Assembly (NCBI GenBank): GCA_946552115.1
Contig: CAMNRH010000009.1
Location: 18,626 to 82,625, forward strand
Length of the DNA stretch: 64,000 nt
Source: an uncultured Lachnospiraceae bacterium
GTDB taxonomy: Bacteria; Bacillota; Clostridia; Lachnospirales; Lachnospiraceae
Reading direction: 5' to 3'
Positions 849-45,437 of this stretch are shown here, piece after piece. The notes below the pieces were generated by a model. The model was not told where the DNA came from. It did not search any database and worked only from the letters and a program-made list of their open reading frames with translations. A program made the translations under genes and the position numbers. Every line of letters begins with the position of its first letter. The stretch's first letter is position 1.

Positions 849-1415
849 TTACTCCCATTCCACATTTTCTTTTATTATTTTTGCTGGAACTCCCGCAGCC
901 ATGCATCCTGGCGGTATATCTTTTGTCACCACGCTTCCGGCTGCAATAACACTGCCCTCGCCAATCGTCACTCCCTTTAGCACAGTTACCCTTGTCCCAA
1001 TCCAGACATGATCTCCAATGATAACCGGACTGCTTATACTTTTTCCGTTAATCTTATGGAAATCTGAATCCATAACCGTAAAGTCATGTGATATTGCACA
1101 CTTATTGCCAATCCGGATTTCTTTCCGGCATCTGATTTTGCAATCGCTGTTTATATAACTGTCTCTGCCTAATACAAGCGTTGCTCCCTGAAATAAAATA
1201 ATATCTGCCCCGTAATAAAATGAGAAATTTCCCTCTACCTCTAAAACGCTCCCTTTATCCATACGCAATATACTTGAACGCCCATTTTCTATCATTCTGT
1301 TTTCGCCTAAAACGAATGTTCCATTCAAATAAATGGCGGCACATTTATCCATCAAAATATAGTCTTCTACTGTTTTGTTTATTTTTGCATATGGGTTCAA
1401 TTTCACAACTTCCAT
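849..1415 (-). CDS. hexapeptide-repeat (left-handed beta-helix) O-acetyltransferase
   Basis: 188 aa with hexapeptide repeats, e.g. [48 protein letters not shown]. Its stop lies 7 nt before the next start, which suggests an operon. Confidence 0.8.
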
Positions 1416-1444
1416 ATTACCATTCCTTATAAACTTACAAACCC

Positions 1445-1463
1445 GATAGCGTTTTACGCTATC
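1445..1463 (-). terminator. hairpin GATAGCG-N5-CGCTATC downstream of the secreted-protein gene
   Basis: Perfect 7-bp stem. On the minus strand it is followed by GGGTTTGTAAGTTTA, which is moderately T-rich. Confidence 0.45.
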
Positions 1464-1480
1464 GAGTCTGTATATCGCTT

Positions 1481-2497
1481 TTACTGTATTGCAAGCTCTT
1501 CTGTCACACCTGTGCTTAATGTTACCTGCAACTTTCCGCCTACATTTCCGCCAAGCATATCCGCATTAAAAGAAAGCGTTCCATCTTTAAAAGTATACTG
1601 AGTTGTTAGTGTAACTTCCCCGCCATTGGCCTTAATCATCTTTACGCCAGTAACGTTCGCGCCGGTTACTGTAACGCTGTTTGACGTCTTGCTGACAGCC
1701 GCAGCTGACAACGCAGAATCTCTATGCTCCGCATAGCTCCAGGTAACCTTGATTGCCGGGAAGTCCAGATCATCTCCCCATTTCGCATTCTTATTCAGCG
1801 CGCCTGTCATGTTAAATGAACATTCATTCCAATCTGTCAGGTCGGCCTCGTCTTTCAATGTATATTGATATCCGTCTGCCTCTGTATATCCCGCTTCATA
1901 ATTACCAGGTATGCCCGCAACCGTCGTCTTAATCGTAGCCGCGCCTGTGCCGGTAAGAGCCGCTGTCTTAGGATTTGAAGCCGCGCCGTCCGTAATCGCC
2001 AGATACAGTTTATTATCTTTATCCGCCGCGTCAAAGGTTGCGCTCTCCGCATATTTGATCGTGCTGTCCCCAGCTGCTTTCTGTTCCAGCTTCACTGTTA
2101 CGTCAATGTCCTGAGCGTTCTCATTTGTCAATGACAGCGCTGTGCTGTCTGCCGTATAGGTTTTTGCTCCGTCATCTGCCGTACTTGTCAGGAAGAAAAC
2201 GCCTGTCGTACCGATAAATGTGGAATTCGCGTATTTTTCGCCGCTTGTCGCTGCGATCAGTCCGTTCGGATCCGCAATATAGTCATAGGTTCCCTCCGGG
2301 ATTGTCGGAAGTGTTACGGAAAGCGTAGGATACTTCATCTCTCCGCCCTCATAGGTTCCTTCGCCTTCCCCAACTCCCGCTGTGGGCGCCGGATCTGTTC
2401 CTTCATCGCCTGTTTCTGATGCAAATACTGTCATCGTGCTTCCAATTACCATTACAGCAGTCAATGAAAGCGCCACAAATTTCTTATAATTTTTCAT
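1481..2497 (-). CDS. secreted protein of unknown function (signal peptide, Thr/Gly/Ala-rich, beta-rich)
   Basis: 338 aa. The N-terminus [30 protein letters not shown] looks like a Sec signal peptide. I recognise no catalytic motif. Confidence 0.65.
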
Positions 2498-2533
2498 TCT
2501 GCCAATTCCTCCTCTTTTTTCATTTAAATGGAA

Positions 2534-3052
2534 TTACCCCTCAACTACTATTTCCAGGGTTACCCTCAAAGTGCTGAGCGTGTTCTGTTCCTCGTCTACC
2601 AGATGATAAATCACAACACAGTTATATGTACCTGCATCCAGCGGTTTTTCCAGTGCAATCTCCTCCAGACGCCCTCCCCTTGGTATTACCGGGGATTTAT
2701 ATAATACATTGTCTTCGTCGCCTTCCAGAACGATATCAAAATAGACGTCGTTCGTATTTTTCTCAACATTTTCCACCACCGCATCGTAAGATACAGCCTT
2801 TCCTGTTTCAAAATGCCATACAGGATTCATCGTAACGGTATAATATCCTGCCTCCTTTGCGTCATCCAGCTCCTCCAGCACACTCTCCACATTCTCAGGA
2901 GTAACGACGACATTGCGCCGTTCCTTTTCCGGCTCCGCATCCCGTGATAACAGAAGATAAATAATAATCCCAATTAATATTACAAGAATTGCAATACCAA
3001 TCCCTATTATAAAACCTCCCTTTCTTGTTTTTTTCTGCTTCTGCTTTCCCAT
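2534..3052 (-). CDS. N-terminally membrane-anchored protein of unknown function
   Basis: The ORF track gives 2534..3061. The ATG at 3052 is better spaced from the AGGAGG. The protein has a basic N-terminus, one TM helix (FIIGIGIAILVILIGIIIYLLL) and then a roughly 130-aa extracytoplasmic domain. Confidence 0.6.
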   Translation of the reverse strand: MGKQKQKKTRKGGFIIGIGIAILVILIGIIIYLLLSRDAEPEKERRNVVVTPENVESVLEELDDAKEAGYYTVTMNPVWHFETGKAVSYDAVVENVEKNTNDVYFDIVLEGDEDNVLYKSPVIPRGGRLEEIALEKPLDAGTYNCVVIYHLVDEEQNTLSTLRVTLEIVVEG

Positions 3053-3186
3053 TACGTCCATCCTCCTGAAAATTCTTTATATTCATTCCTGCAGTCTCCT
3101 GCCGAAACAAATACCTGCCGCCAAATTTTTAGCAGTTACTAAATGATGTATTCATGCAGCATTTCCTTTTAAATAAAATACATTGG

Positions 3187-3457
3187 TCATCCGTATTCCG
3201 GGATGATGCGGCCTTTCAGGACGCTTCGCTCCCCGTTACGTCATGATCTATCCATGTTCACGGGGTCCTGGCCTACCCAATACGCAGATTACGCATGATC
3301 TCTCACGCCCTCTCTGCCTTCTAATGCCGTTCTTTCTTTTTATATATGGCAGACACGCTGTAACGCTGCGCCCGCCTTATCATGAATCTTCCGTCTGGTC
3401 CTCTCCGGTAAAACCCCGGCTTTTTGCCGCGGTTTATCCAGACGGCTGTTCTTATGA
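3187..3457 (-). ncRNA. candidate omega-RNA (TnpB-associated guide RNA scaffold); boundaries uncertain
   Basis: Non-coding 3' flank of the TnpB-like gene, dense in hairpins on the minus strand. These are 3391-3398/3438-3445 (8 bp, enclosing the 3411-3435 hairpin), 3231-3236/3260-3265, 3208-3213/3219-3224 and 3187-3192/3201-3206. No credible ORF is present. The position matches where TnpB omega-RNAs are encoded. Confidence 0.4.
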
Positions 3458-4777
3458 TTATGATTGACAGAGGGCTCCATCCCCCTGCCCCCGCCTCATT
3501 ACATTGCGGGCGGTATTTTTTTTCTCCTCTGTCTCATAGCCGCATGAAGAACAAAAAAATCTGTTGTTCTGTTTTTCTCCCGCTGCTCCGCAGCGGCTGC
3601 ACTCGCTGCTGATATCCTTTCCCAGAACCTCCACAAGCCTTACCGACTGTTCTTTGCACTTCTGTGCAAGCCTCTTCCGAATATACCCTCTCTGCCACTG
3701 GGAAAGAGAATAATTAATCCTCTTATTCTTTCCTCCCCCCTGGGGCTTCGGCAGCTTTACAATATAGACAGTTCCCGGCTTTTCTTCCCGGAGAAAACGG
3801 TTCAGCTCCTGATTGATATAACCGTGCAGCCTTTCTTTCATACGCCGTTTCTTCGCATAATATTTCTTCCGTCCCGGATTTTCTTTCTTATTGCGGCTGT
3901 AGCTTTCCGCCTGCAGGCGAATCCACTCGGAATATCTGGTCTGGTAATCCCCCAGCTCCTCGCCGTAACGCCGTCCCTCATCGGTAGTCAGCATCGTGTA
4001 AAAACCAACCGCCACTCCCACCCGCTTCCGGTAATCCTCATGGCAGTGCACGGAAACTCTTACAGGAGCCTTTATTTCTATGCGGTTTTCCTCCGGATAC
4101 AGCTTCACATACAATTGAGCGCTGTACTGGTTACTATCCGTAAGCGGAATAAAAATCCGTTTCCTCTTTTCCTTTATGGAGATATAAATTCCATGGTCTG
4201 CATAACGATACGCCCGCTCCGCTATCGCAAAGCCGTCCGCCTTATCTGTATGGAGCTTCACATGATATTTTCTCACCTGTCTGCACAGATAACGGGACAT
4301 CTTTTCCGTATCTACTTTCTGCGCCAGCTCCTCATACTGTTTCTGAATTCTCGCGGTCAGTTCTATCGGTTTTTGGTTCAACGCCGCCTCAAACGCATTA
4401 TTTACTTTCAGCAGAAACCGTAAATAGTGCTTTTCCTTCTCCGTAAGAGTCTCGTTTTTACTGAGAAGCATTGTCAGCTTCGTCTTAGTCCTTGTCCATT
4501 GGCTCTTAATCTCGCCCAGTGCATCAAATATCGCAAGATAAAAATACACGGACGGCAAACCCAGCGTTTCCCGGAAACCGCTCTCTGTCATCTCATTTTG
4601 AACCGTATATCCCGGGTACAGCTTAGAAAGACCGGAAATACCTCCAAACCGGTTGTATACATAATTCTTTACCGTTTGGTAATCCTTTGCAATCTCCAGA
4701 AGCTTCTGCATATCTTCCTCTGGCACCGGCTTTTTATTATATTGATGAACGGTTTTACACACTCTGTCCGGAGACAT
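3458..4777 (-). CDS. TnpB-family (IS200/IS605 OrfB-like) protein with a substituted RuvC triad; candidate nuclease-dead RNA-guided DNA-binding protein (TldR-like)
   Basis: 439 aa from the ATG at 4777 (RBS AGAGGAAAGG). The three TnpB motifs are present in the canonical order. RuvC-I is RVGVAVGFYTMLTTDEG, with Ala (GCG, 4010-4012) where Asp is expected. RuvC-II is VYIVKLPKPQGGGKNKRINYSLSQWQRGYI, with Lys (AAG, 3755-3757) where Glu is expected. The zinc ribbon is CSRCG..FFCSSCG. RuvC-III is EEKKNTARNVMRRG, with Lys (AAA, 3521-3523) where Asp is expected. Confidence 0.75.
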   Translation of the reverse strand: MSPDRVCKTVHQYNKKPVPEEDMQKLLEIAKDYQTVKNYVYNRFGGISGLSKLYPGYTVQNEMTESGFRETLGLPSVYFYLAIFDALGEIKSQWTRTKTKLTMLLSKNETLTEKEKHYLRFLLKVNNAFEAALNQKPIELTARIQKQYEELAQKVDTEKMSRYLCRQVRKYHVKLHTDKADGFAIAERAYRYADHGIYISIKEKRKRIFIPLTDSNQYSAQLYVKLYPEENRIEIKAPVRVSVHCHEDYRKRVGVAVGFYTMLTTDEGRRYGEELGDYQTRYSEWIRLQAESYSRNKKENPGRKKYYAKKRRMKERLHGYINQELNRFLREEKPGTVYIVKLPKPQGGGKNKRINYSLSQWQRGYIRKRLAQKCKEQSVRLVEVLGKDISSECSRCGAAGEKQNNRFFCSSCGYETEEKKNTARNVMRRGQGDGALCQS

Positions 4778-4834: not shown

Positions 4835-4854
4835 CCAAAAAGTGTAGTTTTTGG
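4835..4854. repeat. inverted-repeat arm R (CCAAAAAGTGTAGTTTTTGG)
   Basis: Perfect reverse complement of 4972..4991. The arm is itself a 7-bp hairpin with a 6-nt loop. It starts 2-3 nt downstream of the predicted -10. Confidence 0.85.
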
Positions 4855-4856
4855 GA

Positions 4857-4885
4857 ATTATTGATATCCAGAATTTTTCAGTCAA
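4857..4885 (-). promoter_or_regulatory. predicted sigma-A promoter of the TnpB-like gene (TTGACT-17-AATAAT)
   Basis: Minus strand: TTGACT (4885-4880), a 17-nt spacer, then AATAAT (4862-4857). Confidence 0.4.
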
Positions 4886-4971
4886 ATTAAATAAAAAAAG
4901 GGATTAATTTTATTGACGAATGGTCGATAATATAATAGAATAATTAAGAATTTGTGTTAAAGATACGCTTT

Positions 4972-4991
4972 CCAAAAACTACACTTTTTGG
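4972..4991. repeat. inverted-repeat arm L (CCAAAAACTACACTTTTTGG)
   Basis: Perfect 20-nt reverse complement of 4835..4854. It lies about 90 nt upstream of the predicted -35. Confidence 0.85.
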
Positions 4992-5042: not shown

Positions 5043-5087
5043 GGGGCTGCTGCAGAGATGGTTTCTAACCGTCCCTGCAGCAGCCCC
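5043..5087 (-). terminator. strong hairpin (13-bp perfect stem GGGGCTGCTGCAG/CTGCAGCAGCCCC) downstream of the oxidoreductase gene
   Basis: Stem arms are 5043-5055 and 5075-5087. There is no clean U-tract, so it is a probable terminator or insulator between the two transcription units. Confidence 0.5.
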
Positions 5088-11471: not shown

Positions 11472-12392
11472 CTAAATCACACTCCTTTTTTCCGGCATAT
11501 TAACAATCAGGATTCCGATACTGACCAATACAAGGGCCGCCAGATTCTGCACTGTCCATATATTTTCTTTCAAAAAAACAGCGGACAGCATAGCGCCGAA
11601 TACCGGTATGCTGAAGCCAAAGATTGCGACCTTTCCCACCGGATTATATTTTACCAGCTCTGCCCACAGGGTAAATGCCACCGTCGACAAAAGCGCCATA
11701 TAAATAAACAGTATTGTCGATTTCACTGTAAAGCCGCGCACAGCTCCGCCCGCCGCTATCCCGATTGTAATAAGCACCGCACCGCCGAACAAAAGCTGAT
11801 AAGCCGTAATCGTCGTCGGGTGCTCCCTGCCTGAAATCAGTTTTAGTGTTACGGAGCTTGTCCCGTAGGAAAAAGCACAGAGAAGAACCATTCCCTCTCC
11901 CATAAGGTTAAAACCGCTGCCCCAGGCTCCGGGCGCCAGATTAATCACGATAATTCCCGCGAATCCCACGAGACAGCCCAGCGCCTTTCTCCATGTTATT
12001 TTCTCCTCTTTCAAAAGAAAATGTGCTACGAGGATTGTAAAAAACGCGTTGGATGCATTAATCACGGAGCCTTTCGCCCCTGTGGTATGCGCAAGACCGA
12101 TATAAAAGCATACATACTGTATGGTCGTCTGCAGAATTCCCTGTGCAAAAACATACGGAACGGATGATTTTTTCATGGTAATCAGCTTTCTCTCCAAAAT
12201 ACAGGAAAGTACAAATGTAAAAACACCAGCCATAAAAAACCGATATCCCGCAAATAATACCTGACTTCCGGCTCCGTCAATATGAAACCACTCATATCCG
12301 ATTTTAACACAGGGGAACGCGCTGCCCCACAGGGCGCAGCACACAAGCGCCAGAATACACCTGACTTTTGTATTTCTGTAAAATCTTTCCAT
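11472..12392 (-). CDS. EamA/DMT family transporter
   Basis: 306 aa with about 10 predicted TM helices and a duplicated EamA-like architecture. Confidence 0.75.
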   Translation of the reverse strand: MERFYRNTKVRCILALVCCALWGSAFPCVKIGYEWFHIDGAGSQVLFAGYRFFMAGVFTFVLSCILERKLITMKKSSVPYVFAQGILQTTIQYVCFYIGLAHTTGAKGSVINASNAFFTILVAHFLLKEEKITWRKALGCLVGFAGIIVINLAPGAWGSGFNLMGEGMVLLCAFSYGTSSVTLKLISGREHPTTITAYQLLFGGAVLITIGIAAGGAVRGFTVKSTILFIYMALLSTVAFTLWAELVKYNPVGKVAIFGFSIPVFGAMLSAVFLKENIWTVQNLAALVLVSIGILIVNMPEKRSVI

Positions 12393-45379: not shown

Positions 45380-45408
45380 AGTAACCCTCCATAATATTTA
45401 TATATCTT

Positions 45409-45437
45409 ATTATATCATAAATCCAGAAATTTCAAAA
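45409..45437 (-). promoter_or_regulatory. predicted promoter with extended -10 (TGATATAAT) for the small secreted protein gene
   Basis: Minus strand: TTTTGA, a 17-nt spacer, then TATAAT with TGn immediately upstream. Confidence 0.45.

Follow-up and report, generated by a model that had tools for sequence, protein, structure and literature searches.

A nuclease-dead TnpB homologue and its probable guide RNA at the head of a glycan-synthesis gene cluster in Lachnospiraceae

The locus and its nuclease-dead TnpB lineage

The stretch of DNA analyzed here (the window) comprises 64,000 nucleotides of contig CAMNRH010000009.1, assembly GCA_946552115.1, from an uncultured Lachnospiraceae bacterium. 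Its minus strand carries a gene for a nuclease-dead homologue of TnpB, the RNA-guided endonuclease, and the gene is followed directly by a structured region which is very probably the guide RNA of the encoded protein. The order of the module is an invertible promoter of ~110 bp, the dead tnpB gene, the guide RNA and co-directional glycan-synthesis genes, with the following features.

4969–4991: distal inverted repeat of the invertible promoter (inverton), a 23-nt arm
4913–4941, plus strand: promoter core TTGACG-N17-TAGAAT inside the inverton, in the OFF orientation, pointing away from the dead-TnpB gene
4835–4857: proximal inverted repeat of the inverton, a 23-nt arm
3458–4777, minus strand: nuclease-dead TnpB homologue (TldR-like), 439 aa, with a TNB domain and the RuvC triad D/E/D changed to A256/K341/K419
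3183–3457, minus strand: probable guide-RNA (omega-RNA) scaffold, ~275 nt, helices P1–P10, placed by fold z-score, consensus structure, covariation and a covariance model
3166–3182 (3182/3181–3166), minus strand: probable fixed guide, 16–17 nt, (U)GUAUUUUAUUUAAAAG, placed by the conservation profile in 29 loci
849–3061, minus strand: first co-directional genes of the glycan cluster (175-aa membrane protein, 338-aa secreted protein, hexapeptide acetyltransferase); the cluster runs past the window edge

The minus-strand open reading frame (ORF) at 4777–3458 encodes 439 aa and ends in a TAA stop codon at 3460–3458. Its sole Pfam domain is the Cas12f1-like TNB domain (PF07282, E = 5e-8), and a profile search against Cas12f/TnpB chains of the PDB gave E = 9e-8. 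In the alignment with AsCas12f, K stands in place of the catalytic E and also of the final D. More than 1,700 homologues with a full-length ORF were found in a collection clustered at 90%; the best 120 of these share 69–100% identity, and those with a named host are from Lachnospiraceae (Dorea, Sporofaciens). A scan of one genome per species yielded 27 loci, in nearly all of which the active-enzyme D is replaced within a motif EEKxN. Among representatives at 50% identity, all full-length relatives from 66% down to 33% identity were without all three RuvC residues, with variants such as GVAVG, VKLP and EEKKN, while the next relatives, from P0156 (33% identity, E = 1.8e-51) on, have the canonical GxDxG, E and D intact. 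The latter are annotated as RNA-guided endonuclease TnpB of Clostridium botulinum and allies, and some are adjoined by an IS607-type serine-recombinase tnpA. Since the triad is dead across the clade and intact in the next relatives, the protein is a member of an old, large and uniformly nuclease-dead lineage.

Neither tnpA nor transposon ends were seen at the dead-TnpB loci, and the 3' flank beyond the guide is locus-specific. That the gene is a decaying IS605/IS607 remnant without present function, as the lost catalytic triad and the label of transposase in some database records might suggest, is scarcely credible: the full-length ORF is kept throughout the homologues counted above, TnpA and transposon ends are missing, synteny with the inverton and glycan genes is constant, and the helices of the downstream RNA are maintained by compensatory changes.

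Probable guide-RNA scaffold and fixed guide

Between the stop codon of the dead-TnpB gene and the start of the next gene at 3061 there is a gap of 396 nt, which a preliminary description of this DNA, made from the sequence alone, had taken to hold no credible ORF and to encode a candidate omega-RNA. The gene caller did place a 46-aa ORF across the start of the region. Because the stems covary and indels are frequent, we argue from the alignment that the region is non-coding, as first thought. The minimum free energy of 3150–3620 (minus strand) was −168.3 kcal/mol, that of dinucleotide shuffles −128.6 ± 5.6 (z = −7.09), and none of 100 shuffles was as stable. The scaffold starts at the second UCAUAA just past the stop codon (3457) and ends at ...GGAUGACCAA (3183). 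In every locus examined, that is the 27 genome loci and others, a strongly conserved scaffold RNA lies directly after the dead-TnpB stop codon.

To obtain a consensus structure, 22 compact homologous loci were aligned (alignment A1) and folded with RNAalifold, which gave ten helices. The hairpins listed in the preliminary description are all present at their coordinates and each coincides with a helix of the family consensus, as given below together with the two strands of a proposed pseudoknot (all on the minus strand).

3442–3438 / 3398–3394: helix P2, CCGUCUGG/CCAGACGG, family consensus structure
3435–3426 / 3420–3411: helix P3, AAACCGCGGC...GCCGGGGUUU, inside P2, family consensus structure
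3265–3260 / 3236–3231: helix P7, CCCCGU/ACGGGG, family consensus structure
3256–3252 / 3246–3242: helix P8, CAUGG/UCAUG, family consensus structure
3224–3220 / 3212–3208: helix P9, GCGUC/GCCGC, family consensus structure
3206–3201 / 3192–3187: helix P10, UCAUCC/GGAUGA, family consensus structure
3277–3281: AUUGG, proposed 5' strand of the pseudoknot, invariant within the family
3182–3186: CCAAU, 3' end of the scaffold, proposed 3' strand of the pseudoknot and junction of scaffold and guide, placed by apparent homology to ...GAACCAG of active right ends

Conservation and covariation of the stems across homologous loci had been put forward at the outset as a check on the RNA, and the alignment bore them out. 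In the 22 loci 93.8% of cells were paired, compared with 83.4 ± 0.6% when partners were shuffled and 30–45% when partners were slid by 1–3 columns; changes on both sides were found in 38 of the 54 pairs, and none of 500 shuffles attained any of the five measures used. A covariance model of the 3' half of the scaffold only (R1) was tested on loci left out of the model and recovered all 13 held-out family loci, with 14 matches (two in locus L005) at E = 1e-9 to 1e-29. The region matched no family of Rfam 15, EAR included. A further perfect 7-bp hairpin inside the 3' end of the ORF (3587–3603, minus strand), which had also been noted at the outset, falls on codons of a CxxC zinc finger and is not conserved at the homologous position in 22 other loci; it is peculiar to this locus and does not belong to the conserved RNA. 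An extra hairpin, GGCGGGCGCAGC...GUGUCUGCC at 3348–3377 (minus strand), lies between P1 and an A-rich linker and is also present in L001–L003, L006 and L025; it occurs in only some loci and forms a variable expansion segment.

TnpB and Cas12f guide RNAs have a guide-proximal pseudoknot. The pairing UGG...CCA proposed here fits such a pseudoknot, as judged from comparison of the two families: active relatives pair CUGG with CCAG where the dead family pairs UUGG with CCAA, which is a compensatory change between families. Inside the dead family no covariation of AUUGG with CCAAU was found, and in L023 and L024 the pairing breaks in two of the five pairs. Extension of the pseudoknot to 7 bp was rejected for want of covariation support.

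The boundary between scaffold and guide was placed by comparison with active elements. In gut metagenomes there is an active element with several copies (L173, L177, L179, L180/L203) which is conserved for ~290 nt past the tnpB stop codon, to ...UUAUGAACCAG, and its copies diverge beyond this conserved right end ...GAACCAG; the active relative of C. botulinum likewise terminates in ...AGAACCAG. On inspection, the active right ends and the RNA of the dead family have the same order of blocks, namely GGAU(G)AUAAA, a stem, UUUUCAGC, AAACGG, a hairpin, CUGGGUAGUCCAAGGC, a second hairpin, GUGCGAA, a terminal hairpin and CCAG. Because the apparently homologous active right ends stop at ...GAACCAG before the variable flank, the scaffold of the dead family should end at ...GAUGACCAA(U), i.e. 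after GACCAA(U). The omega-RNA, or reRNA, of active IS605/IS607 elements (the nearest being those of C. botulinum and of gut metagenomes, loci L157 and L173–L203) thus resembles that of the dead family in starting at the stop codon, in running to the right end with the same block order and in having a terminal hairpin followed by CCA(G/A) with the proposed UGG...CCA pseudoknot. The active elements differ in that the D-E-D triad is intact, some have an IS607-type serine-recombinase tnpA, and the guide is the variable flank, which varies by copy.

The closest active relative with definable ends was the multi-copy TnpB element of L173, L177, L179, L180 and L203, with the right end ...TTATGAACCAG. 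Four copies of the gut-metagenome active element carry the IS607-type serine-recombinase tnpA, and L175 and L206 share one contig. A scan of metagenomes using P0156 alone gave no match; the scan using an alignment succeeded.

Across 29 non-redundant loci, GAC is succeeded by CAAURURYYUUAUU and then by six positions, most of them A/U. Of positions 1–14 of this box, eight are invariant, making it the most conserved unpaired part of the RNA; the information content is at least 0.5 up to box position 20 and ~0.1–0.3 from position 21. The family consensus of the guide is (U)RURYYUUAUUWWWWWW, and two loci of GCA_036941055.1 have identical 17-nt guides despite differing proteins. Since the segment corresponds to the variable flank of active elements and yet is conserved in the dead family, it is probably a fixed guide starting after CCAA(U). 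The preliminary description had expected a guide at the 3' end of the RNA, which holds, and had considered it not yet definable, which no longer applies as the guide can be placed at 3182/3181–3166. It had also predicted that a conserved scaffold would give way abruptly to a variable guide; this is seen in the active relatives, while in the dead family the guide itself is conserved. Of the two roles suggested for the AT-rich stretch past the last hairpin, guide or transcript end, the former was retained, and a transcript end of arbitrary sequence does not agree with the invariant positions of the box.

Taken together, the constant linkage to the dead-TnpB gene, the covariation, the apparent homology to active elements and the boundary placed by it all support the omega-RNA first proposed, and we regard it as very probable that 3183–3457 (minus strand) is the guide RNA of the dead TnpB. 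TldR proteins are nuclease-dead TnpB homologues whose guide RNAs are recognized by a conserved guide where active relatives have a variable flank (10.1101/2023.11.30.569447, in which the properties of TldRs are described). Homology to TnpB/Cas12f, loss of D-E-D, an adjacent guide RNA with conserved scaffold and guide, the lack of a transposon context and a stable tie to non-transposon genes are all found at the present loci. We take the RNA, with high confidence, to be a guide RNA of the TldR type, and we favour, with some reserve, the fuller reading in which its fixed guide would direct DNA binding in trans.

Invertible promoter and downstream glycan genes

Upstream of the dead-TnpB gene the two 23-nt arms of the inverton are separated by 111 nt and are 96% complementary. 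In other loci the same promoter core, TTGAC(N)-N17-TAGAAT, lies between equivalent repeats; it was found in the ON orientation (facing the gene) in five loci and in the OFF orientation in 12. A comparison of the orthologous loci L001 and L003 revealed a 110-nt segment which is reverse-complemented between them with 109 of 110 positions identical, the same repeats and the same downstream flank. As a promoter between inverted repeats occurs in both orientations, the segment upstream of the dead-TnpB gene is an invertible promoter. The ON orientation was not seen for the locus of the window itself, all four assemblies of which are OFF.

No recombinase was seen next to the inverton of the window. 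A candidate invertase is a resolvase-family gene (PF00239; L033:8101–8694) located 1.3 kb upstream of one dead-tnpB inverton; an upstream resolvase was found in this one locus only. Just past the upstream gene for an 856-aa oxidoreductase, at 5043–5087, there is a 21-bp near-perfect hairpin which is most likely the terminator of that gene, and matches of this hairpin to microRNA families of Rfam were discarded as spurious.

All loci inspected had co-directional glycan-synthesis genes 3' of the guide RNA, with locus-specific content, and at least four genomes carry two dead-tnpB modules. Across loci the downstream genes include DegT, CapK, pyruvyl transferases, glycosyltransferases, IspD/TarI-like cytidylyltransferases, Glyphos_transf and SPASM enzymes; in the contig of the window, genes for an FrhB-like protein, an epimerase, GT2, SPASM, pyruvyl transferase and Caps_synth are found further along. 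In eight loci the next gene starts 34–57 nt past the start of the conserved box, which leaves no room for a promoter of its own, so that in these loci it must be co-transcribed with the RNA.

The commonest first gene (18 of 29 loci) encodes a protein of 450–870 aa without Pfam match, which is called TagF-like here on motif resemblance only (L021:5581–6981, L025:5652–7058, L033:12054–14648 and 15 other loci). Members start with MRKAQK... and have the motifs AYVIPIPYYD, LVYIPYY and WRPHPL; the family may, as far as these motifs indicate, be a distant TagF-like glycerophosphotransferase. In the window, the first two genes instead encode the 175-aa membrane protein (2534–3061, minus strand) and the 338-aa Thr/Gly/Ala-rich secreted protein (1481–2497, minus strand), neither of which has a Pfam match. 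This pair recurs past the guide RNA in at least six loci (the window, L002, L008, L012, L022 and L031) and may represent a surface fibre or a glycosylation substrate.

Long polysaccharide operons are known to have 5' elements such as EAR, ops and LoaP leaders. The RNA described here sits in the 5' part of such an operon and is co-transcribed with the cargo where gaps are short, which would be in keeping with a cis-acting leader of the glycan operon (processive antitermination, a riboswitch or a stability element) that acts independently of the dead TnpB. We consider a leader of this kind very improbable because the RNA is invariably joined to the stop codon of the dead-TnpB gene, with cargo genes that are completely different between loci, because its block order is common to active TnpB right ends, which have no glycan cargo, and because EAR and all other Rfam families gave no match. 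Nor does a 5' untranslated region or riboswitch of the downstream gene, which the preliminary description had named as a competitor of the omega-RNA, fit the changing downstream genes, the constancy of the RNA and of its link to the dead-TnpB gene, and the lack of an Rfam match.

Candidate target sites and proposed role

Matches to the guide were sought in the window with exact and mismatch searches using versions of 10–18 nt. Short-guide matches within the window occurred at chance level and in coding regions. One site at 45396–45411 (plus strand), ATTTA|TATATCTTATT, matches nine of the first 11 guide nucleotides and is without GTATA; the count for this pattern in the window was 3 against 0.56 expected, and the site was rejected as not significant. 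It overlaps the −10 region and 5' untranslated region of a minus-strand gene for a small secreted DxDxDG-repeat protein. Within 4–10 kb on either side of 30 loci, no match to the guide of the same locus was found except in L002 (+66) and at the TagF-like site described below. A search of viral contigs with the 14-mer CAATATGCCTTATT gave 120 matches, all 120 of them random, and a 14-mer is unspecific at that scale. Two similarities close to the gene were also set aside. The segment AATATATT, shared by guide and inverton promoter, is an AT-rich coincidence, the promoter being constant while guides vary; and the antisense of dead-tnpB codons ~12–16 (QYNK(E/K)P; 4720–4760, minus strand) matches the guide at eight of ten positions here and at nine of ten in L004 and L008, is absent where the protein has SKG and is expected about once per ORF by chance, so that it was rejected as probably fortuitous.

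When the pattern GT[ATC]TA[TC] followed by a guide-like 12-mer was used, 11 matches were found in 656 kb of family loci against ~0.02–0.2 expected, and all 11 are on the operon strand. A stricter form of this pattern occurred in family loci only, with no match in ~200 unrelated control loci. The candidate sites are of two kinds. Sites of kind (i) are intergenic and promoter-like, AAGUAUA|UGUAUUUUAUUUAAU; in L031 and L155 they are found in the stretch from the stop codon to the start of the scaffold, in L002, L006 and L031 at 57–77 nt past the box, and in L010 at 67 nt before the start codon. They match guides of the UU class and, except in L002, mismatch the CC-class guide of their own locus. 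The guide of the window belongs to the UU class and matches the L155 site at 13 of 13 positions, then at 14 of 17. The site of kind (ii) lies within the TagF-like ORF at the motif LVY|IPY(Y/F), GUAUA|UAUACCUUAUU..., and is matched by CC-class guides at 9–12 of 12 positions; the variable positions of the guide are codon wobble positions. An earlier IPYY site in the TagF-like gene (aa ~146) is guide-like as well and was rejected, being without a GTATA-like motif and a leading T.

A recurrent element of ~23 nt, AAGTATATGTATTTTATTTAAT, has the appearance of a sigma-A promoter and is at the same time a GTATA-flanked match to the guide type of the window. It was found at L155:1861–1883, L031:11338–11360 and 11783–11805, L006:5675–5697, L002:5744–5766 and L010:309–331, is restricted to dead-TnpB loci and is always on the operon strand.

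The 5-mers before the candidate sites (GTATA, GTGTA and similar) resemble the left-end flanks of active relatives, TTATA, TAATA and CTACA, and would serve as the target-adjacent motif (TAM). The three flanks of active relatives are compatible with either a TTATA-like motif or a motif within GTATTGAT. At both kinds of candidate site the guide has the sequence of the coding strand, with the TAM on the side toward the promoter, an orientation reported to be efficient for blocking elongation.

Several observations have to be set against a guide that acts on such sites, and against parts of the comparison on which it is built. The window holds no second match to the guide beyond chance. The four pairs of loci from the same genome (L004/L006, L007/L009, L026/L027 and L031/L155) gave no clean cross-match. 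The candidate GTATA-like TAM is based on three independent left-end flanks and on the candidate sites themselves. As conservation holds for the guide and for the TagF-like site alike, the resemblance of the two counts roughly as one observation and not as many, and the intergenic sites could be mere sigma-A promoters which share AT-rich sequence with the guide. The unfiltered covariance model placed its best plus-strand match at the equivalent position (~140–170 nt past the stop codon) in seven of 12 active loci, with E values of 0.3–6 that are individually not significant. Finally, an AlphaFold2 model of the dead-TnpB protein (predicted local distance difference test score 57, predicted template-modelling score 0.41) was too poor for a fold search.

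The guide-encoding box is the only perfect match to the guide in any locus, it has the orientation reported to be efficient for a block of elongation, and it is identical in two loci of one genome. These points would suit a roadblock in cis, in which the complex binds its own guide-encoding DNA and paralogous boxes, attenuates read-through and sets the 3' end of the RNA. We judge such self-targeting unlikely, as GACCAA(U) 5' of the box matches neither of the candidate TAMs (GTATA-like, TTGAT-like), a pure self-match needs no conservation of sequence, yet the guide is conserved, and repression of co-transcribed cargo has no obvious benefit. Nor do we find it probable, and rather less so than self-targeting, that the complex is an RNA-guided activator which recruits RNA polymerase or a sigma factor in the manner of dCas12f-sigmaE of Bacteroidetes. 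Transcription driven by an exapted nuclease-dead Cas12f has a precedent (PMC13472631), and the intergenic candidate sites are indeed located immediately 5' of the guide-RNA scaffold or of glycan genes; however, no sigma factor or partner gene is conserved beside the module in the loci inspected, and the ORF-internal candidate sites suit a roadblock better than initiation.

On balance we lean towards the guide RNA and dead TnpB acting as a repressor in trans. If the promoter flips to ON, a single transcript containing dead tnpB, the guide RNA and the glycan genes would be made. The dead-TnpB protein would bind and protect the scaffold and guide, the remainder being trimmed by cellular ribonucleases, and the complex would then bind double-stranded DNA matching the guide beside a GTATA-like TAM and block RNA polymerase, as for other TldRs. 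The likeliest targets would be alternative glycan loci of the same genome, an assignment which we make only tentatively. UU-class guides, that of the window included, would be directed to the promoter-like intergenic sites and CC-class guides to the site coding for LVY|IPYY in the TagF-like gene, and the locus that is ON would thereby silence competing loci. As to origin, an ancestral element may have inserted at GTATA inside a TagF-like gene, the flank of which would have become a guide against intact paralogues. The complete scheme, an RNA-guided mutual exclusion of phase-variable glycan loci in which the fixed guide of the ON locus roadblocks alternatives at promoter-like sites or in the TagF-like gene, with a guide that is maybe a fossil of the insertion-site gene, is put forward as a possibility that we hold more likely wrong than right.

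Among known systems, TldRs associated with csrA in the gut Firmicutes Oscillibacter and Flavonifractor (PMC13418256) are similar in having a chromosomal dead TnpB with a downstream guide RNA, several loci per genome, a short upstream inverton (~110–120 bp) and predicted cross-targeting of alternative loci. Their targets lie inside fliC ORFs of alternative loci, which is paralleled by the ORF-internal candidate site found here, and one Oscillibacter strain has four cross-targeting csrA-associated TldR loci with ~120-bp invertons upstream (PMC13418256). The present loci differ from these, which were compared by description, in their glycan cargo, their Lachnospiraceae hosts, a promoter core that is sigma-A-like and not FliA-dependent, and an upstream resolvase gene in L033 only. 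No csrA or flagellin gene was nearby, as neither CsrA nor a flagellin N-terminal motif was detected in six-frame translations of 36 loci and the window (within 4–10 kb).

TldRs associated with fliC_P and oppF (10.1101/2023.11.30.569447; 10.64898/2026.09.22.753285) also have a dead RuvC and lack a transposon context, and in them too a conserved scaffold is followed by a fixed, conserved guide. They sterically exclude RNA polymerase where a match is flanked by a TAM, and the same mechanism would be expected here. Their scaffold measures ~97–100 nt compared with ~275 nt here; gene association and taxon are different, the candidate targets of the present case lie in related loci of other genomes, and the module described here lies inside the operon that it heads, behind an inverton.

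A further parallel is provided by capsule loci of Bacteroides. These consist of an invertible promoter, upxY and upxZ, and capsular polysaccharide genes, and UpxZ inhibits other loci in trans. In both cases a phase-variable promoter is followed by a conserved regulator module and variable glycan genes, with several loci per genome. The Bacteroides regulators are proteins (a NusG-like antiterminator and an inhibitor), in contrast to the candidate RNA-guided DNA binder found here, and the likeness is one of analogy only, with no homology.

Other clades have already provided published examples of TldRs and their guide RNAs, and even of an inverton paired with dead tnpB. New here are the association with a glycan cluster, the Lachnospiraceae host, a scaffold of ~275 nt compared with ~100 nt in described TldRs and the position of the module inside the operon that it heads; so long a scaffold joined to a fixed guide is a new architecture of guide RNA among TldRs. 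In the literature searched, no paper was found connecting polysaccharide loci or invertons of Lachnospiraceae with a dead TnpB, and according to a preprint of September 2026 further domestication events have yet to be characterized.

TldRs are a class of natural RNA-guided transcription factors that was recognized recently, and most of their clades have no known physiological role. The present loci add a large clade, in abundant gut commensals, that is wired to phase-variable surface-glycan loci, and surface-glycan traits shape immune recognition, phage susceptibility and colonization. The arrangement suggests that gut Lachnospiraceae select their surface coat under RNA-guided control. With guides, a candidate TAM and candidate target sites now defined, cross-repression between loci is directly testable. 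If the mutual-exclusion circuit is true, it would be an RNA-guided counterpart of the UpxY/UpxZ hierarchy of Bacteroides, and evolution would have turned to RNA-guided DNA binding on at least two occasions, once with flagellins and once with glycans, to have one surface variant expressed at a time.

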